In this document: one piece after another, positions 7,457 through 30,110 of the stretch
Numbering within the stretch: the stretch's first letter is position 1
Layout of the letters: each line of letters begins with the position of its first letter
Assembly: GCA_032718475.1 (NCBI GenBank)
Contig: JAUCBJ010002639.1
Span: forward strand, 18,069-82,068
Direction of reading: 5' to 3'
DNA: 64,000 bases
Origin: Nemertoderma westbladi
Lineage: Eukaryota > Animalia > Xenacoelomorpha
Made by a program: the position numbers and the translations under genes
Notes under the pieces: model-generated
Told to the model about the DNA's origin: nothing
Databases searched by the model: none
What the model saw: only the letters and a program-made list of their open reading frames with translations

Positions 7457-8346
7457 CTGCCGGGGGAAATATATGGGCCCAGTAAAGAAAACAACAGGAT
7501 TACTAAATATTAACGGCTATATACGGAATCTATCAATATAGTTCTGTCTATCTATATAGTTTGCTGTAGTTACTATGACTTTTCGTTGCATGATAGTCGT
7601 ATTTGGAGACAGATGGAGAAACTGGACGTAAATCCCATCTTGGCGAATTAATATCCGCCTCAATGTTAAACTCTCAATTTCGGGAAAGGAGCAGGTTACA
7701 GTGGCACGTTATTATAACCTAAACAATAAACTAAACACAATAGAACAGGTTGCAGTTTTATTTTTTATAGTAATCAGCAGTTTGCTCCGATTTTCCCCTG
7801 GAAAGGGTTGAATTTTGATTGCGTCGCCAAGTCCCCCCCCGGGTTTTGATAACCGCAGGATCTGGTGAAGTTATGAAATATGGTTGCGGTTTTGGTAATT
7901 CCACATTAAAAAAATGTCAACACCATTTATAATACAATTGTTTTTAGTTCTGAAAGAACTAGCAAATACACTGAACACTCAGACAGAATTATAAAACTTC
8001 GGAAAATCATAAATAATTATTTATTGTGACAAAGAATGCCTCGTTCCGTTCCGTTTCATATTGTTTTAACGAATAACATTCAAGGTTGCCAATCTACTTC
8101 AGTTTCAATTTCCCCCGATTTGTTCATTTTTACTAGAATTCCCTGACATTTCAAGAAATAATGATAGGCTGAAACGTACGTATAGCGCTGGTTCAACCCC
8201 CGGTGACGCGCTTTCTTATTTTTTTCCATTTTTGAACAAAACCATAATATTATACCTTTAATTAAGTTGCATTAACAGCTCAACTCCAATTCATTTATAA
8301 TTACTAAATACCGCTAGGTATTTCTATTTACTAACAGTCAACTCAC

Positions 8347-9270
8347 CTCGCCAAGGAAGACGACAAAGAAGGGCGTAACGAGGTCATTGAGTCCCTGTAC
8401 GTAACCAGAGGCTGGGTGTCTGGTGGCCCAGACGTAGAGAACCCGTTCGTACAACTCCTGGACCTCGCGAACCTGGAACAACGGCATCAGCGGGTTCGTC
8501 CGCGGTATGTCGATGTGGATCTGTCGGTAGGTCTCCTCGTTGAACTCGGGGCCGCCCTGCCGGAAGTGCTGCCCGACGAACCGGAAGTATTCCTCGCGTT
8601 TACGGGAGAGAGTCGACGCCTGTTGGTCCTTGCGAGGGGGCAAGTAGACGGAGAGTAGGCGCCAGAGTAACGGGCGGAAATGATCCGGGATTCCGGACCA
8701 GCAGAGTCGTCGGACTTCCGAGAGGTCGATAACGGATTGGTCGAGCAGCGCGGAGAGTTTGCGAGTTCGGAGAGCGAGTTTACTGCGGTGGTTCGCGTTG
8801 GGGGGCCGCGGCGAGGGGGCCGAAGGGGGGCGCTGCGGGGGCAGGGGGTTAGCGAAGGGGGACGACGGGGGGGATATCTCGACGGGGGAAGGTAAGGAGG
8901 GGGCGGGGGGAGGGGGGACGAGGCCCGATAGTCTACGGTGCTCCTCTAGTACCCGGGAGGAAGCGAGCGCGGAATGGCGGGTTGAGATGCTCCCGACGAA
9001 CGTATCGTCTTCGTCGTCCAGGCCCCACGCGTCCGAGGTTTCGCGTTCGAACTCTTGGAATGTCCGACTGAGTTTGTTGGCGGCTTCCGGGTTAGGTTGG
9101 TGGTTCGGGGGGACTCTGGAAGGGGGCGACTTCCCGTGGCGGTCCCCAGGTTGAGACGCACTCGCAGGGGGGTACTGGGCTCCGTATACCGGCCGAATAT
9201 TCCCCGGTAATTTGGAACCGGATTTCTTCCAAAATCCCCCCGAAGATACATCGAATGTGTTGCGCGACAT
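8347..9270 (-). CDS. TBC1D22: TBC1 domain family member 22, exon 1 (spliced product ~493 aa)
   Basis: 'FWKKSGSKLPG', 'PVYGAQYPP', 'TSDAW', 'CWSGIP', Arg finger 'QIHIDIPRT', Gln finger 'SGYVQGLNDL'; donor GAG|gtgagt at 8347/8346, phase 0. Confidence 0.95.
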
Positions 9271-10810: not shown

Positions 10811-11406
10811 AGTAGTAGAAGAATAGGTGACCCCGACGAAGTCCTCCCTAGCTTGGGCTATGGGGCTACCACTCGGAGGACTATTAAAAATGCCAAATTC
10901 CGATGCTAAATTTCGGCGTTTAATTGGCCACATCTGCCACCATCATCGGTAGTTACCATCAACCAATCGTAGCGTATTCACCTACGCGTAGCCTAACCTC
11001 GCGTTGCCCGCCTTACTCGATGGCAGCTGTTACCTACCTACCAATCGATAGTATTGATTCGTATCATTGCTGCAACAACCATCCATTGCATATTCATCTT
11101 CGCGTAGCCTAACTTCTCGACGCATGGCTAGCCCCCAACCCACCAACCAACCAACAGCGATTATTCCCCTTTTCGCCACGCTACCACCTCCACATACTGT
11201 ATATGGTGACTAAAACGATAACGTGGCCATCTACACGATGCATATACCAAGTCGTTATATTACAGTATATTATATCGATTGCCAACTCAACGATTTACGT
11301 CCCTCTGTTGATAGAGCTACTCAACTGCTGTCACCAAACAAACAAACCAACCACTCAGTATGATACATGTGCATGAAATTCCGCCACGTTCCAGCTACAC
11401 GTATAC
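10811..11406 (+). repeat. Maverick left terminal inverted repeat (~600 bp)
   Basis: 5'-AGTAGTAG simple-repeat terminus typical of protein-primed Polinton ends; inner end defined by the inverted match to 28691-28732; expected 6-bp TSD CCTATC (10805-10810) cannot be confirmed. Confidence 0.8.
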
Positions 11407-11728
11407 GAACATTTCCAAGTAGTTACTCAAGCTAACCGATCCCGCAGCATCTGTGCCATATTGAAAGGCTACTACTACTACTAACATTATACAGCGCGTT
11501 TTTATAATAATTATTGATTATTATTACACACAACCCTATGATTCATATTCTTTCACATATTTCCTATCCACGTAACCAACCAACCATTCAACCACGTTGC
11601 ACCCCATCTCTTTTCTTATTCGTCGATGATTATGACACGTCTCATCTCTTCTTCGTTGACTATGCCCCATCACAAATTTATATATAACTGAATGTTTTTA
11701 ATAAAATTCATCACTTGTAATCTTCATG

Positions 11729-11979
11729 GTAATATATTGATACCATATCTAATTTTTTTGTTCTCACTCTGACATTGTGTTATTTCCTTAATAATTTATA
11801 CATTATCTTACTTGTTGTATATTCGTTGGTTGGAAAACGACACCTCATAAAATGATACTGATTCCAGCATTGGGTATCGACTCAAAAACAAAAATCGAGT
11901 GAGACAGTATCATTTTATGAGGCGTTGTCTTCCGACCAAACACAATTTTAGAGTGAGAACTATGGTGTCAATTTATTAC
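11729..11979. other. Three-segment imperfect inverted repeat (long fold-back)
   Basis: 11826-11860 pairs with 11905-11939; 11760-11780 with 11940-11960; 11729-11747 with 11961-11979. Confidence 0.85.
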
Positions 11980-12039: not shown

Positions 12040-13104
12040 ATGGCCTTAACGCAAAAAACCGGAGCAACAAATAGCGGGAAATTTACTTACAATAAATATA
12101 CTTGTACCGTCATTCACAGCCAGTATTTTATTGTGGAATCTCAGGAGGACAACGAATCAATTTGTTTTTCCCATCAAGATACCCGCTATTTGTTAGACAT
12201 TCTAGAAACAACCAACAACAACCAACATCAATCCAGACCAGCAATTATACCAGGTAGGATATATCCAACTCTTCGTTTTGCGCGGGGAAATTTGAATATT
12301 TCCATCAACCCCACATCGGGTGATGTTTACGTTCAGAAACAAGGCAAATGTAAAGTTCTTAACAAAGCTTTTACTGAAGTTCTAATTCAATACAGAGGGA
12401 AATTATTGCAATTTCTCTCTCCACCGCTAGAGATTATTAGCGATCAATTCTACATTGAATTATCAAATCCAGATTTTATTGGATTTGTAACAGCTTTTAA
12501 AGGAACCAACTATGTTGGCTTATGGAAAATCAGCCTCAGATACGCTGATAGTGTTGGTTTTAACTATTATACAGGTTTCAATTTGTCAAAACAGGAACTA
12601 ACTGTTTTGTTGCGAGAGTGGGACAACCAAGTCGATGAAACAGACAAGCATCTTTTTGATAAAAATATCATTCAATTATCAGACCGTCTCAAAATGATTA
12701 AAACCAATAATAAAAAAATTATTATCACCAACACTGATAATTCTACTGAAGTAGGAGCCGGCGGAAATTCTATCGAGTTGCATTACTTGAATGATAAAGC
12801 CCATATTAGTTTTCTCAAAGAATCGCTGGATGGCGTCTCTCTTACTGAAGCCCATGTTGACGGTTTTGTCCTTTTGGATAAAACTAAAGCTTTCGTAGAG
12901 ATCCCATCACCTAATCCGGATGTTGAAGAGAGTTGCTCTCAACCGCAACAGATCTTTCCTGAAATATTACCTCGGAAGCCAAGATCATCGAGTAAATTTA
13001 CCAACACATCACCTGCAAAGAAACAGAAAGTTGTCAGTAACCCAGCTCTAGTAGAGTCTGTTACTAATTCTCCATGGAAACCTGATTATTATCCTAATAT
13101 GTAA
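12040..13104 (+). CDS. Maverick ORF with a PC4/Sub1-like ssDNA-binding motif
   Basis: 354-aa ORF; 'VTAFKGTNYVGLWKI...TGFNLSKQELTVL' resembles PC4 'VxxFKGKxxIDIR...KGISLxxEQWxxL'; basic NLS-like 'PAKKQKV' near the C-terminus. Confidence 0.6.
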   Translation: MALTQKTGATNSGKFTYNKYTCTVIHSQYFIVESQEDNESICFSHQDTRYLLDILETTNNNQHQSRPAIIPGRIYPTLRFARGNLNISINPTSGDVYVQKQGKCKVLNKAFTEVLIQYRGKLLQFLSPPLEIISDQFYIELSNPDFIGFVTAFKGTNYVGLWKISLRYADSVGFNYYTGFNLSKQELTVLLREWDNQVDETDKHLFDKNIIQLSDRLKMIKTNNKKIIITNTDNSTEVGAGGNSIELHYLNDKAHISFLKESLDGVSLTEAHVDGFVLLDKTKAFVEIPSPNPDVEESCSQPQQIFPEILPRKPRSSSKFTNTSPAKKQKVVSNPALVESVTNSPWKPDYYPNM

Positions 13105-13298: not shown

Positions 13299-16200
13299 AT
13301 GGATAAAATAACAATATGTTGTCCATTCTGTCATATGAATGTAACTAAACATAATTACTTACGCCACCTACGGTCACATTTTGAAAGTTATTCTTGTTTT
13401 AAGTGTCATGTTGTGACATCATGCAGCGAAATTTGTAAACGACATGAATCGACTACTGGTTGTAAAGAAATGGAGTTCCGCACCTATCAATTGACTTGTA
13501 CTACCTGTAATAAAGAGTATACATATGAGAATTATATACGACACGACTGTCACTTGAAATGTTACTACACAAGAAAGCGTAAATTTTCGCAACATAAAAA
13601 TATAATATCCAGAAAAAACTTAAGGGTGGCTCTTGGTACATGCGCAACAATTTTTACGCGGGAACAAGAAGCTCACAATAATCGTCTTGAAATTTATGTC
13701 CACGACCTCCCAACTTCTAGAGATTATCCTGATGTAGAAACAGCATTAACACAAATTCGAGGTAATATTCTTCAGTTAATATTAGACAGATTGAAAGAAA
13801 TGAATGTTCTTAGACTGTGGTTAGGTCTAAATGTATTAATGTACAGGTCACATTTTTCAGAAGGTGAGCAATTGGAAACCTTTTATTTTAATTCTTCCGG
13901 TGGTGCTATTAATACTGTAGATTCGCCGCAAAGTTTTGACACATGGTTTGAGTATGTGCTGGGAAATATATTACAAAAAATAGCCATCTTTAACACACGT
14001 GGTTCGGGATGGCGTATTAAATCTTTATTAAGGGTTGAAATTAAATTAGCTGAATCTAAGTGTAAGTCGTTACTATATAAGGGGCATGGATATATGGAAT
14101 TACCTAAGGCTCTATCAGGTAAACAGTGTGTTATAAATGTACAATCGGCTGATAATGACTGTTTTAAATGGGCAATTATATCCGCAAAATTTGGTAGCAA
14201 AGTGAAAAGCAATAAAAACCGTACTTCATTGTACAAAAATTATATGAGTCATTTCATTTTTGACAACGGGAACAAAGATTATCCAACAGAGTGGCTGTTA
14301 GCGATTAAACTTTTTGAAAAACAAAATTCAAAATATATAATTAATTTACTATGTTGGAATAACGACAACAAACGCGCCCCCGTATCTATATTAAGACAAC
14401 CACCGTTTAGTAAAATTACACCCGATAAAGAGTTATTAAATATATTACTTGTAGTAAAAAATAACAATGTACCTAAACCGAATCATTATGTTTGCATAAC
14501 TAACTTGAATCGATTGCTGAATACGAGAGCTCTTCATATCGGGAATAGGAAATATTGTGAAAGGTGTTTGGCTCATTTTTTTCAATCGGAAGTTCTCCAA
14601 CGACACCGTCTTGCATGCTACCAAGGAAGAAGTCAACGAGAGAAACTACCTAATAAAAAAAGAACACACATTAGTTTTACAAATTTAGATAGAACCTTAT
14701 CCCCATTGTTTGTCACCTACTTTGATATAGAATGTATCTTACAACCTTCAGTTAATAATCAATTTATACAGGAGCATATACCGTGTGCTGCGAGTTATTT
14801 AATTGTTCCCAATACTGAATTAATTAACCCCCCAAAATGTCATTTGAAAAAATTCGTAAAGTCAAATAATAATAATAATTGTATTCAAGATTTCTTAGAT
14901 TCATTATATTTTGATTTAACTGAATTATGTTGTTGGTCAGACATATACACTCATAAAACTATGTCATTTACTAATATTGATTTTGTAAATTTTGAACAGG
15001 CAAAATTTTGTTTCTATTGTAATGTTACTTTAAATAATAATGTTGGGAAAAACAGACATCATTCACATATTACAGGTAAATATATTGCAGCAGCCTGTAA
15101 TAGTTGTAACCGAAGTTTATCATTGAAACGATACCTGTATGTACTTTGCGGGCACAATTCCAGTAATTACGATATACATTGTATATTACAAACCGGATTT
15201 AGAGATAAGAAATACTCCGATTGGGATATAAAGGTTATACCGAGAAATACAGAACGATATATTTCACTGAGTGCGTTTATCCCCATTAAAAACACTTCTA
15301 AAAAAATTGAGTTACGTTTCTTAGACACATATCAATTTTTAAGCTTTTCCCTAAGTAATTTAGTTGAGTGTTCAACAAAGGATGTAGCGAGTCATGATAT
15401 AAGCTCAATTTTACCTATTACTCTACAAGAAATGAAATATTTTTATCCAAACTTGAATAACTCAACAATTAAACGGAAAGGAGTATTTCCATACGAGTAC
15501 TTGACAGATATTAATAAATTTAATGATACTGGTTTGCCATCTATAAATAATTTTTTTAGTAACTTAACACAAAAAACATGTACAATTGAAGATTATAGGT
15601 TTGCAGGATTATCATGGGTAGAATTCGACTGTGTGAATCTCAAAGTTTATCTTTTAGCCTATTTAAAACTCGATGTTTGTTTGCTTGCTGATATATTTGA
15701 GAATTTTAGGAATGTTTGTAAACAAAATTACGATTTAGAAGTGGTTTTTTACTGTAGTATTGCGTCATTTACCTATGATTGCGCGCTAAAATATAATAAA
15801 TGTAAAATAGAATTAATAAAGGATTATCAAACATATAGAGATTTTGAAAAATCAATTAGGGGTGGTGTTTCATTTTGTCGAAAGCATTATATAGAATCAA
15901 ATATACCTGGAACAAGTACATATGATTCTACTAAGGAAGAATGCCATATTTTTAATATTGATTTCAACTCTTTATATTCTGGGAATTTAAGTAAAAAACT
16001 ACCCACCTCGCAATTCAAAGAAGTAAGTATTAAACATTTAGAGAATGCAATTCCAGAAAAACTAATCGAGTATTTGGTAGATTTAGACATTGATGGATCT
16101 ACTGGATATTTTTTAATATGTGATTTAAATTATCCCAAGGCTATTCACGATCAAACATTACAATTACCGTTAGCCCCTGAGCATTTAAGTATAAATGAAA

Positions 16201-17360
16201 CAATGCTTTCGCCCTATATGCGGGAACAATTTAATAATTTATCGATACAAAGAGGTACCTCCCGTAAATATAGGATGTCTACACCAAAACTCTTGCTGAC
16301 GCAATTTGATAAAGAGTTTTATCATTTACATTTAAAACTGTTAAAATTTTATATAAAACATGGATTAATTGTTACTAAGCTCCATAAATTATATTCTTTT
16401 CAACAAGAATTTGTATTTAAAAATTACATAGATTTTAATATTAATCAAAGGCGCCTAGCAAAAAGTTACATTGAAACTGCTGTCGCGAAATTGCTCAATA
16501 ATTCACTGTTTGGCAAATCAATAGAAAAGATAAGAGATCGATGTAACTTTCGTATCGCAAATAGCAACGATAAATGCGATCAATTGGTAAATCGTATTAA
16601 TCATAAACAATTTATAATATACAATAATACATTATCGGGACATTTATTAGTGAAAGACTCTGTAACTCTCGATAAGCCTATATTTATTGGTAGCGCTGTG
16701 TTGGACTTGGCTAAATTGGATATGTATGAGCTGTTTTACAATAAATTGCTACCTATTGAGAAAGAATTAAACTGTCGTATTGAAATTGCCGCATCAGACA
16801 CTGATTCTTTGATAGGTTGTTATTATAATACATCGCAGAATAATTTTTTAAAAGCATTAATTAAAAATAACATTTTAGATACTTCCAATTACCCTAAGGA
16901 TCACCCTCTCTACAGCGATAAAAATAAATCCCAACTCTATTACTGTAAAGACGAACTAGCCTCACGTGAAATTAAACAAGCAGTATTTTTAAGACCAAAA
17001 TTATATTCAATTTTGGAATGGAATAACAAAAATATTCGTAGAGCAAAAGGTATTACAAGAGCTGTTGTGGAAACGAATATTACATATGAAGAATATTTAA
17101 AAGCCTATAACTCAAATGAAGAAATAAAAAAAAACATACACAGATTTCAATCTAAATTACATCGTATTTATACCTTAAAGCAAAATAAATTTGCACTCAG
17201 TAGCTTTGACGATAAACTTTATTGGGTTAATAAAAATCATTCGCTTCCTTGGGGGCACTATAAAACAAACCTCAAAAAACCTATAAAAATATCAAATATA
17301 CCAATTTATGAAGAACCAAAAGACGATGGTATTGATGATGAATTATCAAATAGTAAATAA
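13299..17360 (+). CDS. Protein-primed family B DNA polymerase (pPolB) with N-terminal Zn fingers, vOTU-like and EndoVII-like modules
   Basis: ExoI 'FDIEC', ExoII 'HNSSNYD', ExoIII 'YLKLDV', PolA 'DFNSLY', PolB 'KLLNNSLFGK', PolC 'SDTDS', 'RPKLY', 'AKGI'; also 'GSGW', 'DNDCFKWA...HY' and 'CFYC...HHSHITGKYIAAACNSCN'. Confidence 0.97.
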   Translation: MDKITICCPFCHMNVTKHNYLRHLRSHFESYSCFKCHVVTSCSEICKRHESTTGCKEMEFRTYQLTCTTCNKEYTYENYIRHDCHLKCYYTRKRKFSQHKNIISRKNLRVALGTCATIFTREQEAHNNRLEIYVHDLPTSRDYPDVETALTQIRGNILQLILDRLKEMNVLRLWLGLNVLMYRSHFSEGEQLETFYFNSSGGAINTVDSPQSFDTWFEYVLGNILQKIAIFNTRGSGWRIKSLLRVEIKLAESKCKSLLYKGHGYMELPKALSGKQCVINVQSADNDCFKWAIISAKFGSKVKSNKNRTSLYKNYMSHFIFDNGNKDYPTEWLLAIKLFEKQNSKYIINLLCWNNDNKRAPVSILRQPPFSKITPDKELLNILLVVKNNNVPKPNHYVCITNLNRLLNTRALHIGNRKYCERCLAHFFQSEVLQRHRLACYQGRSQREKLPNKKRTHISFTNLDRTLSPLFVTYFDIECILQPSVNNQFIQEHIPCAASYLIVPNTELINPPKCHLKKFVKSNNNNNCIQDFLDSLYFDLTELCCWSDIYTHKTMSFTNIDFVNFEQAKFCFYCNVTLNNNVGKNRHHSHITGKYIAAACNSCNRSLSLKRYLYVLCGHNSSNYDIHCILQTGFRDKKYSDWDIKVIPRNTERYISLSAFIPIKNTSKKIELRFLDTYQFLSFSLSNLVECSTKDVASHDISSILPITLQEMKYFYPNLNNSTIKRKGVFPYEYLTDINKFNDTGLPSINNFFSNLTQKTCTIEDYRFAGLSWVEFDCVNLKVYLLAYLKLDVCLLADIFENFRNVCKQNYDLEVVFYCSIASFTYDCALKYNKCKIELIKDYQTYRDFEKSIRGGVSFCRKHYIESNIPGTSTYDSTKEECHIFNIDFNSLYSGNLSKKLPTSQFKEVSIKHLENAIPEKLIEYLVDLDIDGSTGYFLICDLNYPKAIHDQTLQLPLAPEHLSINETMLSPYMREQFNNLSIQRGTSRKYRMSTPKLLLTQFDKEFYHLHLKLLKFYIKHGLIVTKLHKLYSFQQEFVFKNYIDFNINQRRLAKSYIETAVAKLLNNSLFGKSIEKIRDRCNFRIANSNDKCDQLVNRINHKQFIIYNNTLSGHLLVKDSVTLDKPIFIGSAVLDLAKLDMYELFYNKLLPIEKELNCRIEIAASDTDSLIGCYYNTSQNNFLKALIKNNILDTSNYPKDHPLYSDKNKSQLYYCKDELASREIKQAVFLRPKLYSILEWNNKNIRRAKGITRAVVETNITYEEYLKAYNSNEEIKKNIHRFQSKLHRIYTLKQNKFALSSFDDKLYWVNKNHSLPWGHYKTNLKKPIKISNIPIYEEPKDDGIDDELSNSK

Positions 17361-17886
17361 AAATATAAGTTGTCGGCAAGTGTTAGCGATTAAGTTTAAA
17401 GAATTAAAAAATCAATTATCTGGTAAACACATACTCAAACCAAATCAGTTTATATATAAGATATTTGGTGCCACATTATTAATATTTAAAAATGGTCGTA
17501 TTACATTATTAGGCAGTAAGTATAATTTCCAAAAAGTAAAAAAACATATATTTGAGAAAACTAGTATTAATTTGATTTTAAAATCTGTTAATTTATGTAC
17601 TTATATTTTTAGTATTAAGTCTGTAGTCTATAGGTTATTGATAAACAATACAGGGTTTTATGTTGTCTTTGATAATGTGCAACTTCAAGTTATATATGAA
17701 CCTGAAATATTCAATAACTGTAAAGTCAGAATAAATAATAATGTTGTTGTTTGCTGCTTCTACACCGGTAAATGTACATTAATGTGTTCCCCGTTTAAAT
17801 TTCATATATATTACCCTATATTCAACAAACTGGTTAATAATTTATTATTGTTTGGTGCGAGGGTTTTTGTTGTAAAATATAATTAG
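17308..17886 (+). CDS. TATA-binding-protein (TBP)-like protein encoded by the Maverick
   Basis: Two TBP-like repeats: 'QIVN...ATLLIFKNGRITLLGSK' (cf. TALIFSSGKMVCTGAK) and 'YEPEIF...VVCCFYTGKCTL' (cf. YEPELF...VLLIFVSGKVVL); size of a bare TBP core; overlaps the pPolB 3' end. Confidence 0.8.
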   Translation: MKNQKTMVLMMNYQIVNKNISCRQVLAIKFKELKNQLSGKHILKPNQFIYKIFGATLLIFKNGRITLLGSKYNFQKVKKHIFEKTSINLILKSVNLCTYIFSIKSVVYRLLINNTGFYVVFDNVQLQVIYEPEIFNNCKVRINNNVVVCCFYTGKCTLMCSPFKFHIYYPIFNKLVNNLLLFGARVFVVKYN

Positions 17887-18576
17887 TGTGAGTGAAATTT
17901 ATTGTTGTTGTTGCTGTTTGGTGGTGGAGATTTTTACTAAAATATATATATATATATATATTAAATTGGTTGGAAAAAAATTATGAATATTTTTTTAAAA
18001 TCAACAACTAGTTTGAGAGGAAATTAACTTCGGTAGAGCGATTGTTGCTTGTAACACTCAAGTAGGCATAGTATACTCAGAGGCTGTAGCTAGCTAGCTA
18101 GCTAACTCGGCATTGTTGCTCACGAGTGAGTTACAATAGCGCATCTGTTACTTATGAGTGTGCGAGAGTGCGGTAGGCAACGCTAAGCTCGGTGAGAAAA
18201 GATTAGGGCTATGTGCTGGTATTCATAGTCAAAGACGATGCCCTCCTATCTGTTACTAGTCTGTATACCGGTACATATCATTAAAACATTGGCTATGCAT
18301 CTCCCTACATTCAGAATAGAACAACAACCAGAGCATATATCGCTAATCCGCATGGGAAAGGTTTATGTTATGCATTTTGTTAACTATGAGAATTTTGTAA
18401 TGTACACATCTGCGACCCTCTACAAAAATATATATAAACTCAATTTTTCTGACAGTGAACTATAATTTTGTTAAACAAAAGAAGAAAAAAATATCAGTAG
18501 GCCTACCTATTCAATTTAAAGATACTCTTTCCGGTACCTAGTTACGACGACAACGACAACTTACCTCAATACGAAC

Positions 18577-18999
18577 ATGACATTTGCCTTTTTCAATAAC
18601 CGTGAGTTGACGAGTTGTATCAAAATCGAATTGCAATCAAGCGACGAAACATATCTCGCAGCATCCAATATTGCTGAGATGGAGTTGCGATATATAAACA
18701 AAAAATTTGAGATTGGGTTTACTTCGATGGAATATGGAGTAGGTCAAGTAGGTGGTCTACCTTTATCGCCTACAACGCTTGAAATTTCAAAAGATTTCTC
18801 GCTTGTTATAAAGATACAACCATCGCGAATATCGGGAAGCTCACCCTCTAGCGAAAATTGGGAGAATGATGTTGATGACTCGCTTCACTTCAATATACCA
18901 ACACAAAGACCGGTAGAAGTTAGCCGGCCTATAAACAACCATTTACAGGTACCGGCAATGGAGGAAACTCTACAGAGGGACCCGCATATAGGACTATAA
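18577..18999 (+). CDS. Maverick hypothetical protein (140 aa)
   Basis: ATG-initiated ORF with TATATAAA at ~18431 upstream and AATAAA downstream; no recognisable motif. Confidence 0.55.
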   Translation: MTFAFFNNRELTSCIKIELQSSDETYLAASNIAEMELRYINKKFEIGFTSMEYGVGQVGGLPLSPTTLEISKDFSLVIKIQPSRISGSSPSSENWENDVDDSLHFNIPTQRPVEVSRPINNHLQVPAMEETLQRDPHIGL

Positions 19000-19179
19000 A
19001 AGGTATAGCCTAATACAGTAATAAATTTAGGGTTGTTGTTATTGTTATTGTTATTGTTAGGCCTATCAGTTATTGTTGCTTATAAAACTTAGTAGACCGA
19101 ATCTATTTTATATATAATTAAAAAAAAAGCGAATACATAAATAAATTAACTATGTTTTATATAGTCCCACCGTCAACAT

Positions 19180-19395
19180 AGAGTGAATGTTAGTAACAGA
19201 GAATGGGGTGGATTTTATATAGGCTTAGTTAGGTATACCGAGAGCCACACCTATTGTATCCGTGTGGAGTCATTATATGACTGGTTGAATGATGGCGCTC
19301 AAGAGTGAATGTAGAAAGTTAGTAACAGAGAGTGTGAGGGGGATTTTATAGGACCTATAGCCCTACCGGTACCTAACCACACCTATTGTATCAAT
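19180..19395. repeat. Imperfect tandem duplication (~120-bp period) in the Maverick convergent intergenic region
   Basis: AGAGTGAATGT...TTAGTAACAGAGA...GGATTTTATA...CCACACCTATTGTATC occurs twice. Confidence 0.75.
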
Positions 19396-19838
19396 GAGCT
19401 AGTCAACTTTCAGTTGAGGAGTAGTCCTTAGGCCTATATGCCTAACCGAATGTAAGTGTACCTTACCTATCCACGAGTACTAAAGGTTAACCATAAACCA
19501 TATTTGGTCAACATTCGAAAAAGGGCCCCGCATAAAGTTAACTATAGCTGTATAGGCTTACCTATACGACAGTAGTAGCCCACCCGCCCGCAGTAATGTA
19601 GATTAGACCGATTAGACCAATTAAAGTTGTAAACAGAAAATAAAGTCGGCTAGCTACTGGTAGTTAAACTCTGATACTGGTAGGTGTGGTGTGTTTGTGA
19701 GTGTAAACAGCGATATAAAAAAAAAGATTTTAATGTTTTTATTATTTTTTATTGACATTAAAACAAATATATTATCCCATCACATTACAAGCTTAGAGTA
19801 AACCTACTGTAAGAGTACATCTTCCACCGCTGTTAAAC

Positions 19839-20444
19839 CTACAGTATGAGTACATCTTCCACCACGGTTATTTCTTTCTGTTTATCATCATCATCAGTCG
19901 CAGTTAAACGCTTTCTCATGAAAAAATGTAGCGCCTCATACCCCCCAACGCGTTTTGCTGAGCAGTATCGCAGACAGTTATCCTTTGTGTTTAAGTGGAA
20001 CGCACATTTATTTTCTACTGTAGTGAATCGGTTGTGAAACCGACATGGCGTTAAATAATCGTGATACTGCTTATATATTCCCAATCTCTCCACCGAATTT
20101 GGCGCGAGAACATCGAGTTGGGAAACTAATATTGCCCGCTTCAGCAACCCAAATACATGAATGTTTTTTTTATATTTTAAATGGCTCTTCATATATTTTT
20201 TAAACTCATCTTGGGAAATGTCACCGTAGTCCCAGGGCAAGTGAGAAGTCATATCCCGTAAATTGTTTACGTGGGCTACATCTAAAGCTGATAACTTAAT
20301 ATTAGACGGGCCTTTAATTAAAAACGTCTTTATATTAGTTTTGGTGTAATTAGAATCGAATATAGCAAATTCTTTAAATACTACCGGATACTCTTTATTG
20401 TCTATCTTATAATATTGAAAATCAACAAAAATAATATTATCCAT
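19839..20444 (-). CDS. Maverick accessory protein, DEDD/DnaQ-like nuclease family
   Basis: 'IIFVDFQ...FKEFAI', 'LPWDYGD', 'VFGLLK' and C-terminal 'CAFH...YCS' follow a pattern I recall from Polinton/insect-virus DEDD-like proteins. Confidence 0.6.
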   Translation of the reverse strand: MDNIIFVDFQYYKIDNKEYPVVFKEFAIFDSNYTKTNIKTFLIKGPSNIKLSALDVAHVNNLRDMTSHLPWDYGDISQDEFKKYMKSHLKYKKNIHVFGLLKRAILVSQLDVLAPNSVERLGIYKQYHDYLTPCRFHNRFTTVENKCAFHLNTKDNCLRYCSAKRVGGYEALHFFMRKRLTATDDDDKQKEITVVEDVLIL

Positions 20445-20479: not shown

Positions 20480-20935
20480 TTACAACGCTTGTTGGTTTAT
20501 TTTATAATAATTAACAAGCCATTTATATAATATTATTTCATTTATTTCCACATTATTTGTAAACGCTCTCATTGGATAGATTGTGTGAATACGATTTACC
20601 AAATAATACAGACAGTACACACCGCATGTGGTCCTCCTAGGGTCTTGAAATTGTTTGCGAGTAGTACGCCACCTTGCGGAATTTTTCTCAAGCCATTTTT
20701 CGATGCATCTGTTTGGATATTTTGGTCCAAACGAGTCAAATAATTCAGCCTCATTATCTCGTATATATATTGCGATCCAATGAATCCCAGGCAGATGCTC
20801 TTTATCGGTATTTACTATTAAGCCATAGTCTCTTCGCTTATTATTATTATCTAATTTAGGTAATTTATTAGCTGGAAACGCACCCAAATAGTGACCACCC
20901 ACTGGAAACATATCAAGGTCCTCTGTAGATAACAT
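20480..20935 (-). CDS. Adenain-like (C5) cysteine maturation protease
   Basis: 'IVNTD...PGIHWIA' (His), 'FDSFG' (Asp), 'QFQD...TCGVYC' (Gln/Cys). Confidence 0.96.
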   Translation of the reverse strand: MLSTEDLDMFPVGGHYLGAFPANKLPKLDNNNKRRDYGLIVNTDKEHLPGIHWIAIYIRDNEAELFDSFGPKYPNRCIEKWLEKNSARWRTTRKQFQDPRRTTCGVYCLYYLVNRIHTIYPMRAFTNNVEINEIILYKWLVNYYKINQQAL

Positions 20936-20937
20936 AC

Positions 20938-22197
20938 TTAATCGATATGTATTTCTTTCCTGCTATTTAAACTTAATGATTGATCATAAATATTAAAAAC
21001 GATTACATTTATGGTTTCAACCAACGGTTCAGCAAATCTTAATTTTAATTGGCCATTAGTATATATCGACGGTTGCGGATCTCTAACATAGCCGTCGGCG
21101 GTTAAGTCCCAGGATAGGATGGGGCAATTACCTAAGTAGGTTTCATGGTCTATATTATTACCTCCATAACCGTTAATATATGTATTAATATTCTTCATTA
21201 ATTGAGTATACTCAAAAATATATGTTCCATCTGTAAAATTAGGCTCGTATATTACACCACCTACTGGAAGACTGTCTACAATCAGTTCCGCACGTCTAAG
21301 GTTAAAATGTTCAAATTTCAAGGGAATGCTAATTAATTCTCCCGAATAAGCGTTATTTGTTATGAAGCCAATAATAACTAATTTGGGTTTTTTACCATCA
21401 AATATGTTTGTTTGGGTGTAATTTGTGGTTTGAGCGGGAATAGTAAATGTTGTCACCTCCTTTTTTTGAAATTGATATTCAATATCGTAACTCTCTAAAC
21501 CTTTTAGGTGACTGCTTTCTATTACAGGATTAACCTCCATTCTAGGGATTAGAATCTTTATTTCATCTAATTCTAGTCGAAGATTTGTCACTGCGTTTGC
21601 GTTTGGAGTGATTTTAAAAATAAACGAATTTGATACTTTTCTAAAATGCATTCTTAAATCATACCCGGGTTGTATTATTTTAGTTTCAGTATCAAAATCA
21701 ATCGTCAATCCACTTACAAATTGCATTTGTTTACTAAAGGCATCGTCAATAGGATGCGCGCCGGGATCAATTTCATTTCCGTGCTCAGATAAAGGTTGAT
21801 GAAAGCCACCCGCACCCAGTAGCCCATTTTTATCCTCGTAAGTTGTAAATAATAAATTGGATAAGTACGACTTGTAGAAATAATGGTTATTGCTATTTTC
21901 AACCTGCTTCTCATTAAGGTCTATTTTAATATCACTCCACATAGTTTCAGCGGGGTAATTCAGCATATATATATGGGAGTTTTCAAGTCGTCTATCCCAT
22001 CGTACAGTACATTTTGTAATTAATAACGCATCTTGTAGTTTCGTATAGAATTCATTGGATCTCGGTACAAGGAACGTGACCTCCCTAGATTCACTTCTGA
22101 GATTAGATACGGGGTAAATTGTTTCATAATGCTTTGCTTTAAATTCAGTCTGTATTGGCTGTGTAGAAAATAAATCTAATTCCTTAATAATTGACAT
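20938..22197 (-). CDS. Double jelly-roll major capsid protein (Polinton PY/hexon-like)
   Basis: 419 aa; 'ELDLFSTQPIQT', 'YPVS...FLVP', 'YFYKSYLSNLL', 'PKLVIIGF...AYSG...PLKFEHFNL', 'WDLTAD', 'LKLRFAEPL'; adjacent to PRO. Confidence 0.92.
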   Translation of the reverse strand: MSIIKELDLFSTQPIQTEFKAKHYETIYPVSNLRSESREVTFLVPRSNEFYTKLQDALLITKCTVRWDRRLENSHIYMLNYPAETMWSDIKIDLNEKQVENSNNHYFYKSYLSNLLFTTYEDKNGLLGAGGFHQPLSEHGNEIDPGAHPIDDAFSKQMQFVSGLTIDFDTETKIIQPGYDLRMHFRKVSNSFIFKITPNANAVTNLRLELDEIKILIPRMEVNPVIESSHLKGLESYDIEYQFQKKEVTTFTIPAQTTNYTQTNIFDGKKPKLVIIGFITNNAYSGELISIPLKFEHFNLRRAELIVDSLPVGGVIYEPNFTDGTYIFEYTQLMKNINTYINGYGGNNIDHETYLGNCPILSWDLTADGYVRDPQPSIYTNGQLKLRFAEPLVETINVIVFNIYDQSLSLNSRKEIHID

Positions 22198-22199
22198 TA

Positions 22200-22760
22200 T
22201 TAAAAAATACTTTTTTCGCAGTGTTTCAATTTGCCTTTTATATTTCTCTTTTTACTACGTCGATGATGTATGTTCATAGACATTGGTCTAGTGGGTCGCT
22301 TTAAATCTCTATAAACTTTTTCTACAACTGACCTTGTTGACGGTTTCATTTTATTTAATGCTTTATTAATAACCGTATTAGCCTGCTGATGTAAGACCCG
22401 CTTACCTTTTGGTATTACGTGTTGTCTCATAAATTTTGTGGTAAATGGTAAAGCTTTCTGTAAAACTTTTTTAGCTAATGGCTTACCAAATTTTTTCAAT
22501 GTCGATAAAGCGTCTGTAAATATACCTTCTCCGTGTTGATTTGCCCGCATACCTCTACGATAACGCTGAAAACGACGTTGTTTTAAGTTTGTACCAAATG
22601 TGCCAATTTGTTGACCGTAAGGGTCAATATATGAACCTCCTCGAAAAACAGGAACTTGCGTCGACCCTCTGGTACTTCTTCCACCTTTAAAAACAGCAAG
22701 ATTCGAGTCTGCACCACCATATTGAGGTTTACTGTATCTTTGAAATAAATCAGAATCCAT
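22200..22760 (-). CDS. Basic virion core-like protein with QxGG/QxGxG motifs
   Basis: Arg/Lys-rich; 'QYGG', 'VFKGG', 'VFRGG', 'QHGEG' followed by amphipathic 'IFTDALSTLKKFGKPLAKK'; usual position between penton and MCP. Confidence 0.8.
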   Translation of the reverse strand: MDSDLFQRYSKPQYGGADSNLAVFKGGRSTRGSTQVPVFRGGSYIDPYGQQIGTFGTNLKQRRFQRYRRGMRANQHGEGIFTDALSTLKKFGKPLAKKVLQKALPFTTKFMRQHVIPKGKRVLHQQANTVINKALNKMKPSTRSVVEKVYRDLKRPTRPMSMNIHHRRSKKRNIKGKLKHCEKSIF

Positions 22761-22761
22761 T

Positions 22762-23625
22762 TTAATTTATTCGTTTAAAGCGTTTAAAGTGTAATGTAAT
22801 AGATGTTGTCCCGTATTCAAAATTCAAATCTTTTCCTTCTTTGTCTGTTATTTCAATATGAATGTATGTTATCTTATATGATTTTTTTACAGGGATATAA
22901 TGAATTGTATCCTTGACAAATTCTTTATTTATTACGCTACCATATTTCACGTCATCAGGTATCGCAACACGACGAAGTAAAGCTAAACCAAAGTCATTAA
23001 TATATTGATTTTCAATTATATTAGTGGTCACGTACATGTTCGACTTAGGTTCTGGAATAGAATTGGGTGGTTGAGGGCATAAAAATACCATCTGGTAAGC
23101 TTTTTCTCCATTTCCGATAACCTTTATTAAATAACCCTTTATGTTATTTTTCGTCTTCAAAATAATTTTAAAATTTGGATTTAAATTCGCGCCGAGATTA
23201 TTTTCAGTAATTCCAAAATAATAGGCTAATTGTTGACCTATAAATAACTCTCGCACAGTTTTCCCTAAAATAAATTGCAGCCTATTTTGCTGAGTATTTT
23301 CAACTATTTGTAATTTATCTTTCAACGCCCCTGTGTTAAAATAATCTATAATGTCATTGATACTGTAGAACAAACCGGATGGAAGTGTATCCTCAAAATT
23401 TTTTTTTCCTTTTTTTAATAAAATAACATTCTCTACATTGTTATACATGGACGGCAACGTTGCTAAGTAAAATATACTTTTTATACCTACCACCCAGTTT
23501 TCGTTTGGGTTTATAGGTAAGGCGCCATGGAAATTGATCTGATAATTACTAGCGCTATTGCGGGGAAAATCAATTGGACAGGAGTTACTTGGTAGTCTTA
23601 CGTAGAATTCATCCATCACTGCCAC
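22762..23625 (-). CDS. Minor capsid (penton, PX-like) protein, copy A
   Basis: 'FYVRLPSNS...FPRNSASNY', 'WVVGI', 'MYVTTNIIE...LLRRV', 'YIPV...IHIEITDKEG...F..G...ITLHFKR'. Confidence 0.9.
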   Translation of the reverse strand: MAVMDEFYVRLPSNSCPIDFPRNSASNYQINFHGALPINPNENWVVGIKSIFYLATLPSMYNNVENVILLKKGKKNFEDTLPSGLFYSINDIIDYFNTGALKDKLQIVENTQQNRLQFILGKTVRELFIGQQLAYYFGITENNLGANLNPNFKIILKTKNNIKGYLIKVIGNGEKAYQMVFLCPQPPNSIPEPKSNMYVTTNIIENQYINDFGLALLRRVAIPDDVKYGSVINKEFVKDTIHYIPVKKSYKITYIHIEITDKEGKDLNFEYGTTSITLHFKRFKRIN

Positions 23626-24481
23626 CCCATATTAACTTAAGTGTTATAACAGTGCGACCTCCGCTGAAGTTAATTAATTCGCCTTGTCCGTCACGTAAAG
23701 TAATTAAGATTGTTTTTAGTTTTTTATTCAACAACGGGTAATAGCAAATGCTCTCGTATTCGTGATTAATATATTTTCGATTTAATTGCGTTAAAGGGCA
23801 GGTTCTTAAGAGCGGAGCTAAAGCGTCACCAACAAATGAGCTCTTAATAATATCTGTATATATAAAGATAGTGTCTTTATTACGTGTTATATTCGTGGGA
23901 GCTGGAAAATCTAAAATGCCAATTTCCGAAATTTTTGGTCCGCTATAATTTAAAATTAATATCGGCTGTTCTATATTGCTTAATTCATCTACTGTAGTGG
24001 TACTGTATATATCCCAATTCGGAATATCCGGATGATTCCGATCCAATAACGGTTTTAAGCCTAGAATTTGTATTAAATCACCACATAGACTTAATTGTAT
24101 TTTTTTCAACTTTTTAGGAAATTTAAATTTAATTCTAGAATTATTTGTATTAAAAATGAATTCGAAATCTCTATATTTCGCTTCAGAATTAAACAGTTTA
24201 TTTATATCATCAATAATGACTTGAATAGAGTTATGCATACCAGGAAATAAACTATATAATTTGGCATCTTTTGCATCTACCCCGATTGACAGTGAGATTT
24301 GAGTTTGCAGCGTAATATTACTGTATGTTGCTTGGTATTGAAGCTCGGCAAGCCCAATTTTAGCGTTTGGACCAATATATAATTCTTCGGCTAAATCAAC
24401 AGTAAACTCGCTAGGATTATTATTGGGGTAAGTGTTTAATGAGCTATCTGAAAGTAGAGTGATATATGTATCTGTGGCCAT
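23609..24481 (-). CDS. Minor capsid (penton, PX-like) protein, copy B
   Basis: 'YITLLSDSS...YPNNNPSEFTVDL', 'IGLAELQY', 'IFIYTDII...VGDALAPLLR', 'YYPL...ITLRDGQG..INF..G...ITLKL'. Confidence 0.9.
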   Translation of the reverse strand: MATDTYITLLSDSSLNTYPNNNPSEFTVDLAEELYIGPNAKIGLAELQYQATYSNITLQTQISLSIGVDAKDAKLYSLFPGMHNSIQVIIDDINKLFNSEAKYRDFEFIFNTNNSRIKFKFPKKLKKIQLSLCGDLIQILGLKPLLDRNHPDIPNWDIYSTTTVDELSNIEQPILILNYSGPKISEIGILDFPAPTNITRNKDTIFIYTDIIKSSFVGDALAPLLRTCPLTQLNRKYINHEYESICYYPLLNKKLKTILITLRDGQGELINFSGGRTVITLKLIWGGSDG

Positions 24482-24742: not shown

Positions 24743-25831
24743 TTATTGAATATGCTGTACCCACGACTGTTTCTTGGATCCGATGAATCGGACTAAATAT
24801 TCTTTCTTTCCATTGCGTACACGTTCTTTAAGTTTGCCAATATTTTTATCAATTGCTAGATAAATATTACTATTCGGGTGGACCTTTTGGAGTTCGTGAG
24901 AATAAAATGAGCCCTTTATTATAGCTCCAGCGCTGTCCTTAATATCGAACATTACAGCAGGTACTCTATCCAACCTGACACGATGAATAATAAATAATTC
25001 ACGTGTCCATTGTTCACGATAGCCTTTAGCAAAAGCAGTACGAGCGATAGATAATCGTACTGTATCTCCAACTTTAAATTTTATTTTCTTATGATTAATC
25101 TGTCTATATTTCCCATATAATCTATTCATTAATTCAGTTTCATTAAATTTATTAACTTCAATAGGTGTCATTTTTATTGTCCTATGATATGACCTATTAT
25201 AAGCCGAGATAAGCTTAGGTAAAATTTTAATCCAAACATTATTTCCTCGTTGTGTAAAAATTTTGAACATCTTTGTTTTTAATGTTCTATTGAATCTCTC
25301 GACAATAGCCGCCTTATTCACAGAATACATTACGTAATACTGTATACCTAACGTATCTAAATATTTTCTTACAGATTTATTTAGAAACTCAGACCCTTGA
25401 TCAGTCGCGATTCTGTTTGGTTTTCCTTTCTGGAATATTTTTTGCAATATACTAATAATTTCAACACCCTTTTTTGTTTTCATACCATAGCCAAAAGCAA
25501 GCCTGCTAAAGGCATCAATACATGTTAATATATAGTTATAATTATTATTTTGCGACTTATATTGCTGCATATCCACCAAATCTATCATATATATATCTTT
25601 TATGCCTCCCGTAAATATTTTAGATGTTGGATAATGATGTCTACGTGGAGCGTGAAGGGTGTATGTCTTTTGCCCGCTCAACCATTTCTTGGCTTGGGCT
25701 GGTTTTATGTTTGCCGCTTTTGCTAATTTTGCAACACTTGCAAAACCCGCGGGGGATGATGGATCTAAATAAATTCTTAACAGTTTTTTGTCTAAGCTTC
25801 GGCTTAAAATCGGTTTCATCTTGCGAGGCAT
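24743..25831 (-). CDS. Retroviral-like (rve) DDE integrase with C-terminal chromo-like domain
   Basis: 'YTLH', D in 'IDLVDM', 'CIDAFSR', D in 'TDQGSEF', E in 'KAAIVERFNRTLK', 'YNRSYHRTIKMTP', 'FKVGDTVR', 'FAKGY..QWT.ELF', 'GSFY..ELQKV', 'EYLVRFIG...SWV'. Confidence 0.97.
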   Translation of the reverse strand: MPRKMKPILSRSLDKKLLRIYLDPSSPAGFASVAKLAKAANIKPAQAKKWLSGQKTYTLHAPRRHHYPTSKIFTGGIKDIYMIDLVDMQQYKSQNNNYNYILTCIDAFSRLAFGYGMKTKKGVEIISILQKIFQKGKPNRIATDQGSEFLNKSVRKYLDTLGIQYYVMYSVNKAAIVERFNRTLKTKMFKIFTQRGNNVWIKILPKLISAYNRSYHRTIKMTPIEVNKFNETELMNRLYGKYRQINHKKIKFKVGDTVRLSIARTAFAKGYREQWTRELFIIHRVRLDRVPAVMFDIKDSAGAIIKGSFYSHELQKVHPNSNIYLAIDKNIGKLKERVRNGKKEYLVRFIGSKKQSWVQHIQ

Positions 25832-26055: not shown

Positions 26056-26445
26056 TTACCGTCCACGGTTAATTTTTTTCGCAATAGCCGCTCCAGCGGC
26101 AGCGGCACCGGCACTTGCGGCAAGTTTCGCACCAATGCCAAGTAAGGGTATTAGAAACGGTACCGGTAGTATGCCTCCAGATTGATTGCTTAACTTTTTT
26201 CTGTAACTTGATATATTTTTTGTTTTACGGTTGAGTGATTTCAATACCTTCTTATAGCGGCGAATATTTCTAAATGAATGAGGGGTCAATTGTACGTTAC
26301 CTTTTAGAACATTTAATGCAGTATTTACAATGAGCCGTATTAATTCGTTACTCGCGGTATGGTTAATAAAATAAGTTCTTTGTTGAGGGGTAGCGCTGCG
26401 TAGAAATTCCAGTTTGTTACGATATTTCTGTACAAGTCTATTCAT
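26056..26445 (-). CDS. Conserved Polinton small protein (PW-like) with QxGG motif and hydrophobic tail
   Basis: 'LIRLIVNTALNVLKGNVQLT', 'RRYKKVLKSL', 'QSGGILPVPFLIPLLG'; lies directly downstream of the ATPase. Confidence 0.85.
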   Translation of the reverse strand: MNRLVQKYRNKLEFLRSATPQQRTYFINHTASNELIRLIVNTALNVLKGNVQLTPHSFRNIRRYKKVLKSLNRKTKNISSYRKKLSNQSGGILPVPFLIPLLGIGAKLAASAGAAAAGAAIAKKINRGR

Positions 26446-26482: not shown

Positions 26483-27163
26483 TTATTTATCATTATTATT
26501 ATTATTATTTTTGCTACGTTTATAGTCAATGTAATTTTTAATGTAACAATTATGATTACGAAATATATCCGATCTAAATCTTAAATGTTCGGGTGTTTCC
26601 TGTCGTAAATCAATTAAGAAATGTGAAAATGGTTGAATTGTCGCATCTTGATAGGAATCAACTAAAAATTTGGTCTGTCCTGGTAACATCTGCTTCGCGA
26701 AATTTAAAACCGATAGACTGTCTCTCGGATTTTTCATTAATACTAAAGTATGGTTATTAATTGATCTTGTGCGGTTATGCTTCCCACCGTAAAACATGTT
26801 TTGCGTTATAAAACAAATAAATATATTGGAATGATGAGCTACCTTAGTAAACAATACAGTTAATGCTGTACTGGACTCAGTTTCTGTTAACAAATCATCT
26901 ATAATTAATAAATCTCGACTATTCACTAAACTATCTATATTTTCGGGCAAGCCTTTGTAAAGGTGAGTAATACCGGGAATAGTCGGGGGATTGCTCCCGT
27001 AACAATACAATACTCGCAAGGGGGCTTCGTTGAAACAACCATTCTTGTGTTTAATTAAATTGCTTACAAAGGTTGACTTTCCAGAACCAGATGGCCCAGA
27101 AATTATCATACTCGTTCCCATTTGAAAGTTTAAATTATATGGACCTGAATTAAAGTCAGCCAT
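26483..27163 (-). CDS. A32/FtsK-like genome packaging ATPase
   Basis: Walker A 'GPSGSGKST', Walker B 'LLIIDDL', 'FTKVAHH', 'ITQN', 'KNPRD', 'IDL', 'RFRSDIF'. Confidence 0.96.
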   Translation of the reverse strand: MADFNSGPYNLNFQMGTSMIISGPSGSGKSTFVSNLIKHKNGCFNEAPLRVLYCYGSNPPTIPGITHLYKGLPENIDSLVNSRDLLIIDDLLTETESSTALTVLFTKVAHHSNIFICFITQNMFYGGKHNRTRSINNHTLVLMKNPRDSLSVLNFAKQMLPGQTKFLVDSYQDATIQPFSHFLIDLRQETPEHLRFRSDIFRNHNCYIKNYIDYKRSKNNNNNNDK

Positions 27164-27385: not shown

Positions 27386-27844
27386 TCAAGCATGGTGAGC
27401 ATCTTTATACGCGAAATAATGATAGGTAACATCAGCGGATTGGAAATCACTTCCCGAGAATTTCGCGCTAATGATTTTTTTATGTTCGCTGCTAAAAAAA
27501 TAAGGAATATAGTAGCAACAGCGTCGTACTACATTTCTATAAAAAATATTCTCCAATATTGTAAATAAATCTCCCGGATCATTACTTTCTGCAGAAATAT
27601 AAGTTATATTTCGAAGCTCTTTCCAATAATAGGGTTGATAACTTGCCAACTTTATATTAAACTTAGATATGGGTGCGCGACAAATAGGACAAATTTTAGA
27701 ACAATAATTATTCATTTCGGAATATTGTACAATACCGGTACATTGTACGCAAGTTGCATGTTTATTTTCACATTTATAATAATCTCGATGTTGTTGCAAT
27801 AACTTAGAATAGCAAACTGGACATTTTTCATTCAAAATATCCAT
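27386..27844 (-). CDS. RING-finger (C3HC4-like) protein, putative E3 ligase
   Basis: 'CPVC...CENKHATCVQC...CPICR'; first ATG at 27844 (track ORF extends to 27904 from a TTG). Confidence 0.8.
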   Translation of the reverse strand: MDILNEKCPVCYSKLLQQHRDYYKCENKHATCVQCTGIVQYSEMNNYCSKICPICRAPISKFNIKLASYQPYYWKELRNITYISAESNDPGDLFTILENIFYRNVVRRCCYYIPYFFSSEHKKIISAKFSGSDFQSADVTYHYFAYKDAHHA

Positions 27845-28007: not shown

Positions 28008-28451
28008 TCAAGAATCAATGATATTATCAACATATTCAACATTATCTGTTGATTCTTCAGGTTCGACAAAGGATTCTTTTGAAATCATTACAATAAAGAA
28101 AGACATAATTTCGTAGGGTCTATGCCGATTTAGCCGTATTTCAAACTTTTCACCAGCTTCGTTGTATTGTGTAATAACAATTAACCCCTCTATCATGGAT
28201 AATAGTAAGATGTTGTTTAATTTTCCCTCATGCTCAACTTTCAGGTTGTAATCTAAGAGATGAATACTATTATCAGAAGCATCAATATCAATTGAGCTTA
28301 AAACTTTCCTGGCTTTTTCAGAAAACTCAATTTTATATTTATCATCTCCCTGACGGTAAATTGTATAATCAATAACAATATAGGCTTGACCATCTTCTGC
28401 AAAAAATGAATGCCTTACTATTGGCATAACCATATCGGAATCAGAAGACAT
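28008..28451 (-). CDS. Maverick hypothetical protein (147 aa, acidic tail)
   Basis: ATG-initiated ORF with a TATA-like tract at ~28547-28556; no recognisable motif. Confidence 0.6.
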   Translation of the reverse strand: MSSDSDMVMPIVRHSFFAEDGQAYIVIDYTIYRQGDDKYKIEFSEKARKVLSSIDIDASDNSIHLLDYNLKVEHEGKLNNILLLSMIEGLIVITQYNEAGEKFEIRLNRHRPYEIMSFFIVMISKESFVEPEESTDNVEYVDNIIDS

Positions 28452-28690
28452 TATTTAATTTATTTTATTGTAAATCAAACAAACAAAGTAAAAACTTTTA
28501 AACTAAAATCATTACAAATGATTAATTGTGATTAAAGCAAGAGATTATATATATAAGATATTTTCAAAAATAATACAGGTCTTAAACTGAGAAATAGCCT
28601 AAATTCGGTTTATTGATTGGTTGATTAGCCGGGAGGGAAAATGCAGTTTAATTAAAAATTATTGCGTAATAATAATAATCACTAATGTGT

Positions 28691-28732
28691 GTATACGCGT
28701 AGCTGGAACGTGGCGGAATTTCATGCACATGT
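28691..28732 (-). repeat. Remnant (42 bp) of the Maverick right TIR
   Basis: GTATACGCGTAGCTGGAACGTGGCGGAATTTCATGCACATGT is the reverse complement of 11365-11406. Confidence 0.9.
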
Positions 28733-30096: not shown

Positions 30097-30110
30097 CGTT
30101 CTGTCGTTCT

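Follow-up and report, generated by a model that had tools for sequence, protein, structure and literature searches.

The window analysed here is a stretch of 64,000 nucleotides from contig JAUCBJ010002639.1 of the Nemertoderma westbladi assembly (GCA_032718475.1; positions 18,069 to 82,068), and it contains a Maverick (Polinton) element of about 18 kb that carries a gene for a protein of the TATA-binding protein (TBP) family. The gene is an open reading frame (ORF) of 192 codons on the plus strand (17308..17886) that encodes two lobes and overlaps the gene for the protein-primed family B DNA polymerase (pPolB), the stop codon of which (17358-17360) is located within the 5' part of the TBP ORF. 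An earlier note, made from the letters of this DNA, had described such an ORF inside a Maverick, and this placement is borne out both by the coordinates and by the presence, in the same element, of pPolB, an rve integrase, a packaging ATPase, a C5 protease and a major capsid protein. The two repeat motifs quoted in that note, ATLLIFKNGRITLLG and YEPEIF...VVCCFYTGKCTL, are both found in the translation, and the ORF holds the TBP core alone, in agreement with the proposed absence of an N-terminal extension.

Identification of the TBP family protein

The product of the ORF matches the Pfam family PF00352 with an E value of 1.7e-7 in two stretches that in sum exceed the family cut-off (31.4 bits compared to 22.9). 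With a profile derived from 117 TBPs, from which the query was excluded, the window TBP scores 26.7 bits over residues 4-158, compared to a best score of 11.6 bits among 2000 composition-preserving shuffles (1826 of which were scored), and none of the other frames of the window passes. Among 1.84 billion representatives, there is one match at E 0.001, a 171-aa protein named TBP by its source. The direct sequence search with the window TBP recovered no homologues at E<=0.001 among 95 candidates, and identity to cellular TBP is about 17-27%. A sequence search of the PDB returned no TBP either; the myosin matches that it produced were rejected as chance similarity. The TBP assignment, which the earlier note had made by eye, is upheld by both the profile searches and the structural comparisons described below: the ORF encodes a two-lobed TBP-family protein.

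The true start codon is probably the ATG at 17338, which would yield a protein of 182 aa, because one sister contig has no ATG at 17308 and is aligned from 17338 onward. The first strand of the alignment-guided structural model begins at residue 12.

This model, obtained with AlphaFold from a 118-row TBP alignment, has a pLDDT of 70 and is partly circular because the TBP alignment was its input. A Foldseek search with it yielded 44 chains at E<=0.001, with TBP in every chain among the matches listed, and VIA gave Z scores of 11.1-13.4 to 38 TBP entries, the next fold being found at Z 8.0. The root-mean-square deviation from TBP structures is 3.5-4.8 over about 165 residues, and the first helix of the second lobe is missing from the model. 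TBPs of nucleocytoplasmic large DNA viruses are among the structural matches; the top viral match is A0A5P9U4S6 (189 aa, E 4e-10). A model predicted from the single sequence is poor, although its helices and strands follow one another as in a TBP lobe (helix-strands-helix). VIA matches it best with the lobe of RNase HIII that resembles TBP, a weak similarity below the caution level (Z 5.7), and TBP itself is absent from the top 50.

Conserved and replaced residues of the saddle

At least three of the four phenylalanines that intercalate into DNA appear to be kept, as the earlier note had stated: F60, F135 and F151 line up with invariant or near-invariant intercalating residues of TBP. The fourth is doubtful because the stirrup of the N-lobe is 5 residues short, the spacing from the stirrup Pro to the strand Phe being 15 residues compared to 20 in TBP. 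The window TBP contains Leu 17 residues before the strand Phe, a position occupied by Phe in 96 of the 115 reference N-lobes. The candidate F48 is ambiguous: a gap has to be placed after it to bring it into line with the fourth Phe, the model assigns it to strand 3, and the TBP of the Maverick contig L012 (see below) has Ser in its place.

The residues that face the DNA are more heavily altered, and the conserved base-reading set of canonical TATA-binding TBP is mostly replaced. N17 is kept and the second Asn of the QN/EN motifs is replaced; we take both of these, along with the strand-5 Thr and the Pro-Gly that follows F135, to be base-reading positions. The basic residues K51, R64, K71, R141 and K155, which presumably contact phosphates, are all kept. 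Also kept is the acidic pair of the YEPE stirrup of the C-lobe that corresponds to the TFIIB contacts, namely E131 (Asp in some sister contigs) and E133, with the positions defined after Ravarani et al. (2020; PMC7221094).

Sister copies and selection

The stretch is covered in part by contigs from five public runs, of which four carry the label organism A and the fifth that of organism B; the best-matching runs may represent the window's own source. The reading frame is intact in every sister contig listed. The indels listed for 17330-17895 consist solely of single insertions at 17378-17389, and since each contig has three of these, the net effect on the frame is neutral; in one sister comparison, 9 of the 12 indels among those listed fall after the TBP stop codon, 15 others being outside this count.

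The pN/pS values given here are raw counts of listed differences, without multiple-hit correction. In a contig that covers the C-lobe (17653-17887), all 11 differences are listed, 6 synonymous and 5 replacement, with 3 of the replacements located in the last ten residues; the resulting pN/pS is 0.20-0.30 (p 0.01-0.04), the range depending on the transition bias assumed. In the N-lobe of the most diverged contig, most of the replacements are conservative, and only silent changes affect P45, T56, G63 and R64. For the pooled 35 listed sites, pN/pS is 0.32-0.48 (p 0.001-0.03), and for the 12 listed sites of pPolB, it is 0.08-0.12. The expectation of conservation and purifying selection across sister copies, put forward in the earlier note, thus holds for the frame, the C-lobe and the pooled sites and falls short of significance in the N-lobe.

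Two types of the TBP gene are found among the sister copies. On a 650-nt contig of run X4 (window positions 17036-17682), 8 of 296 sites differ in the end of pPolB and 54 of 351 in the TBP gene, i.e., divergence of 2.7% and 15.4%, respectively, on one contig (p 1e-8), which implies that two TBP types circulate. The second type, which has arisen via recombination or faster evolution, is also found in runs X3 and X5, the latter labelled as the other organism.

Divergent TBPs in other contigs

Three divergent short TBPs of 171-175 aa (P0002, P0003 and P0004) are encoded on contigs of 1-1.7 kb and group together in the tree with a support of 92; these proteins possibly come from other Mavericks. 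Among the 12 loci related to P0002 that were identified in a metagenome scan, L012 alone matches other Maverick genes, carrying an integrase, a packaging ATPase and a TBP (2475-2790). The L012 TBP passes the Pfam TBP cut-off (E 4.5e-10), is much shorter than the window TBP and lacks most of both N-lobe helices. The two proteins share KPxQxIxK...T..IF, the 15-residue spacing and YEPEIF, and YEPE is the best-kept motif in both. In the tree, for which a quick search only was performed, the window TBP (P0001; branch length 4.9 changes per column) and the L012 TBP join with a support of 74, but because both are long branches, their common origin is not confirmed by the tree.

The TBP gene of L012 is located beside the packaging cassette and points away from it. 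On the minus strand of this contig, the string TATAAACAA, which was chosen by eye, occurs four times (904-2125), compared to 0.23 expected; the four occurrences lie 24-39 nt upstream of consecutive ATGs, namely those of the ATPase, two basic ORFs and an 80-aa ORF ahead of the integrase. It is found nowhere else in the 2790 nt of L012 and is absent upstream of the L012 TBP gene. Scans of viral contigs with pPolB, two TBP alignments and the L012 ATPase found nothing.

Gene content and ends of the Maverick

The TBP gene and pPolB are encoded on the strand opposite to that of the virion genes. The plus-strand cassette starts with a 354-aa ORF (12040..13104) that has no match in Pfam, NCBIfam or PDB sequences; by eye, one stretch of it resembles what we assume to be PC4/Sub1-type single-stranded DNA-binding proteins. 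It is followed by the 1353-aa pPolB (13299..17360), which has no Pfam match and contains DFNSLYS, KLLNNSLFGK and SDTDS, taken here to be the polymerase motifs. Downstream of the TBP gene, there is a 140-aa ORF (18577..18999) without a significant Pfam match.

The minus-strand genes include a 201-aa ORF without a significant match in the searches, Pfam among them (19839..20444), an adenovirus-type maturation protease (20480..20935; Peptidase_C5, E 8e-5, 22.8 bits compared to a cut-off of 21.3) and the major capsid protein (20938..22197), which has 43 homologues, 2 of them named capsid or major capsid protein in UniRef. Next to these are a basic 186-aa protein (22200..22760), probably a core protein judging by composition and position, and two paralogous ORFs of 284 and 290 aa (22762..24481; 27% identical, E 5e-12) that are probably minor capsid proteins given their position. 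The retroviral-type integrase (24743..25831; Pfam rve, E 2e-11) is 39% identical to that of L012. The A32-like P-loop packaging ATPase (26483..27163) matches Pox_A32 under the cut-off (E 0.001) and shares 32% identity with its L012 counterpart, for which the match is above this cut-off. Between the integrase and the ATPase lies a 129-aa basic ORF (26056..26445) with GACTATAAAC at -79; in L012, the ORF at the corresponding place has this string upstream as well. An ORF with weak RING matches only (27386-27844) and a 147-aa ORF (28008-28451) complete the minus-strand cassette. None of the element's 15 ORFs of at least 100 aa, several of which are unassigned, shows a Pfam match to TFIIB, cyclin or RNA polymerase families.

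The left terminus of the element is probably the AGTAGT at 10811, which we take to be the terminal motif. What survives of the terminal inverted repeat is a left copy (11365..11413, plus strand) and a right copy (28684..28732, minus strand; 49 nt, 94%), and no more than these 49 nt survive because a different repeat starts at 28730. The region 28730-33769 consists of nested copies of a non-coding repeat with inverted ends of about 490 nt that cut off the right terminus of the Maverick. A separate 35-nt inverted repeat (89%) is located at 11826-11939, just upstream of the first plus-strand gene. The flanks of the element contain eukaryotic host genes and retroelements according to Pfam, including an intronless choline-transporter-like ORF (1773-3917), a RabGAP-TBC exon (8338-9270), a fibrinogen-C domain (37069-37650), a gag-pol pair resembling those of long terminal repeat retrotransposons (46885-50960) and a reverse transcriptase (58482-59816).

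Promoter motifs

Two TATAAAA boxes in the 3' end of pPolB (17259..17288, plus strand), 79 and 56 nt upstream of the ATG at 17338, are a candidate for the TBP gene's promoter; in one sister contig, the second box is not conserved. Across the element, TATAA is found within -130..-20 of 12 of the 15 ORFs (7.3 expected, p 0.004) and within -90..-20 of 6 of the 9 late ORFs (p 0.035), where both the motif and the upstream ranges were picked after inspection from among several tried. The string CACAT(AT)ACTGTAGA, which is common to the heads of the two cassettes, was dropped as a promoter candidate because TACTGTA is common across the window.

Several other repeats are located upstream of genes or between them. 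The ORF-free region 19000-19838 contains, on the minus strand, two direct repeats of about 100 nt, both of which include a TATA-like box and the 9-mer TCTGTTACT; this 9-mer is also found on the plus strand at 18144 and 18249; it is possible that these repeats are promoters of small RNAs or antisense transcripts. Runs of (ATT)n precede the genes that start at 12040 and 13299, and (TAA)n runs precede the minus-strand genes at 24481, 26445 and 27163, often right at the ATG.

Proposed function and alternatives

It appears somewhat more likely than not that the window TBP is the product of an early gene and recruits host TFIIB and RNA polymerase II (Pol II) to the promoters of the element. The protein would be produced early, together with pPolB, and its rewired saddle, with a sequence preference that has changed, would bind and kink the minor groove, whereupon host TFIIB would bridge it to Pol II. 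The target promoters would most plausibly be those of the capsid and packaging genes, and the altered N-lobe would evade the host regulators TAF1, Mot1/BTAF1 and TFIIA. The acidic TFIIB contacts are kept in this protein, as opposed to their loss in most viral TBPs that are accompanied by a TFIIB of their own, and therefore the window TBP looks built for host TFIIB with a changed DNA preference. The box shared by the minus-strand genes of L012, an independent contig, and the excess of TATAA upstream of the ORFs of the window element also speak for this reading. A more specific scheme, which we put forward tentatively, is a one-protein switch for late genes that would consist of a minimal TBP, host TFIIB and a TATA variant of the element's own, with the TBP and the box co-evolving lineage by lineage (TATAAACAA being the L012 box) and alleles of the TBP gene swapped or driven apart between subfamilies. 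If this is the case, the switch would be the smallest early-to-late system of the herpesvirus kind and would be evidence that Mavericks have a viral cycle of their own in host nuclei.

Several observations weigh against recruitment of the host machinery by the window TBP. The FPG motif is replaced by FNN and the strand-5 TG positions by LG and MC, all DNA-facing residues, and because many residues of this kind are replaced, DNA binding may be weak. The excess of TATAA includes early genes, and host TBP itself could read these boxes. In the 9 late upstream regions, no late-specific or longer shared word rises above shuffles, and TATAAAC, the L012-type box, precedes 1 of the 9 late ORFs, so that no cognate box stands out in the window element. 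The L012 TBP is interrupted by one stop codon and ends at the contig end. The supporting structural model is the partly circular one built with the TBP alignment; the single-sequence model has a pLDDT of 39, and Foldseek found no match for it at E<=0.001. Finally, the pN/pS of the N-lobe, estimated from 23 of the 54 differences in the most diverged contig (8 synonymous and 15 nonsynonymous), is 0.45-0.70 and not significant (p 0.06-0.27), a constraint far looser than that on pPolB.

Some of the same observations could be accommodated by a decoy or competitor that retains the TFIIB/Brf stirrup but has little affinity for DNA; by sequestering TFIIB or taking up places in pre-initiation complexes, it would lower the transcription of host genes, such as those of defence. 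The YEPE motif is the part best kept in both Maverick TBPs, the losses comprise many DNA-facing residues and probably one Phe, and the window element has no late-specific motif above shuffles, all as a decoy would have it. However, a pure decoy would have no need of F60, F135, F151 and the five conserved basic positions, L012 has a private box before its minus-strand genes, and TFIIB binding by cellular TBP depends on DNA, so that we regard this explanation as unlikely. Still less likely, in our assessment, is a role outside transcription, in which the protein would serve protein-primed replication, excision or packaging by bending the minor groove at the terminal repeats. The overlap of the TBP gene with the pPolB stop codon, its co-orientation with the replication cassette and the non-promoter roles of TBP-type lobes elsewhere, e.g., in RNase HIII, would fit such a bender, but it leaves the retention of both TFIIB-contact acids unexplained, and in L012 the TBP gene adjoins the packaging cassette and points away from it.

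The remaining two alternatives are highly improbable. If the conserved stirrup recruited Brf1 or Brf2 rather than TFIIB, the element would make small viral RNAs through Pol III; the TATA-like boxes repeated in the ORF-free region 19000-19838 are compatible with this route, and the same acidic residues are used by Brf1/2 (PMC7221094), yet the N-lobe surface that is also gripped by Brf proteins looks divergent by alignment, and no small RNA is known here, no scan for one having been made. The possibility that the gene was captured from the host and is now a decaying TBP without function, suggested by the very long branch, the GC content of 25% and the loose constraint on the N-lobe, is already largely refuted: the frame is intact in the listed sister contigs, synonymous changes are in excess in the C-lobe, in the most diverged contig, the four N-lobe residues named above change only silently, and the distant Maverick L012 shows the same derived shortening. 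Recruitment of host TFIIB and Pol II by the window TBP accordingly remains the reading that we prefer.

Comparison with known systems

Viral TBPs are already known as a class, and the window TBP represents an altered form of these proteins in a Maverick. Nor is a TBP in such an element wholly new, because the legend of Fig. 5 in Starrett et al. (2021; PMC8502044; preprint 10.1101/697771) includes the gene label 'TBP' for MELD viruses with adintovirus-like PolB. These viruses resemble the window element in having a TBP-like gene in a Polinton-type element; in the accessible text of that article, the gene appears as a legend label only, in a section on non-animal datasets and with no residue, selection or promoter analysis, and the readable text of the animal adintovirus maps (Fig. 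S2) has no TBP label. Among the texts read in the open literature, to which our search was confined, that is, outside subscription journals, the article and its preprint are the only ones that link a Polinton-type element with TBP.

Compared to cellular TBP (PF00352), the window TBP has the same fold, two lobes, three of the phenylalanines and the YEPE stirrup, but it is encoded by an intronless gene in a mobile element, its N-lobe stirrup is 5 residues short and the FPG motif is lost. The TBPs of large dsDNA viruses, according to the accessible parts of the study of Ravarani et al. (2020; PMC7221094), mostly lose the TFIIB-contact acids, usually occur together with a TFIIB encoded by the virus and no longer show the signature for host regulators in the N-lobe; the word 'Polinton' is absent from the main text of that study. 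The window TBP shares with these proteins the two lobes, the kept strand phenylalanines and the divergent N-lobe, but unlike them, it keeps both acids, and neither TFIIB nor RNA polymerase is detected in the 15 ORFs of its element. Virus-encoded TBPs would thereby extend from giant viruses and herpesviruses to an 18-kb element that seemingly depends on host TFIIB.

The working model for the window TBP is the TBP mimic of beta- and gammaherpesviruses, a TBP-fold factor that, in the accessible account of ORF24 of KSHV (the herpesvirus associated with Kaposi's sarcoma; PMC12529657), reads TATT boxes of late genes and uses host Pol II. The KSHV protein, a multi-domain member of a six-protein complex, makes direct contact with Pol II and, by prediction, does not bind TFIIB. 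In contrast to ORF24/UL87, the window TBP is a bare core of about 182 aa that keeps the TFIIB stirrup, has no Pol II-binding N-terminal domain and would act outside a six-protein complex. As a Maverick protein under selection, it offers a direct handle on the timing of capsid gene expression and on whether integrated copies go through an autonomous viral cycle, by way of one protein, few promoters and one host partner, and it is a natural experiment on the limits to which the TBP saddle can be rewired.

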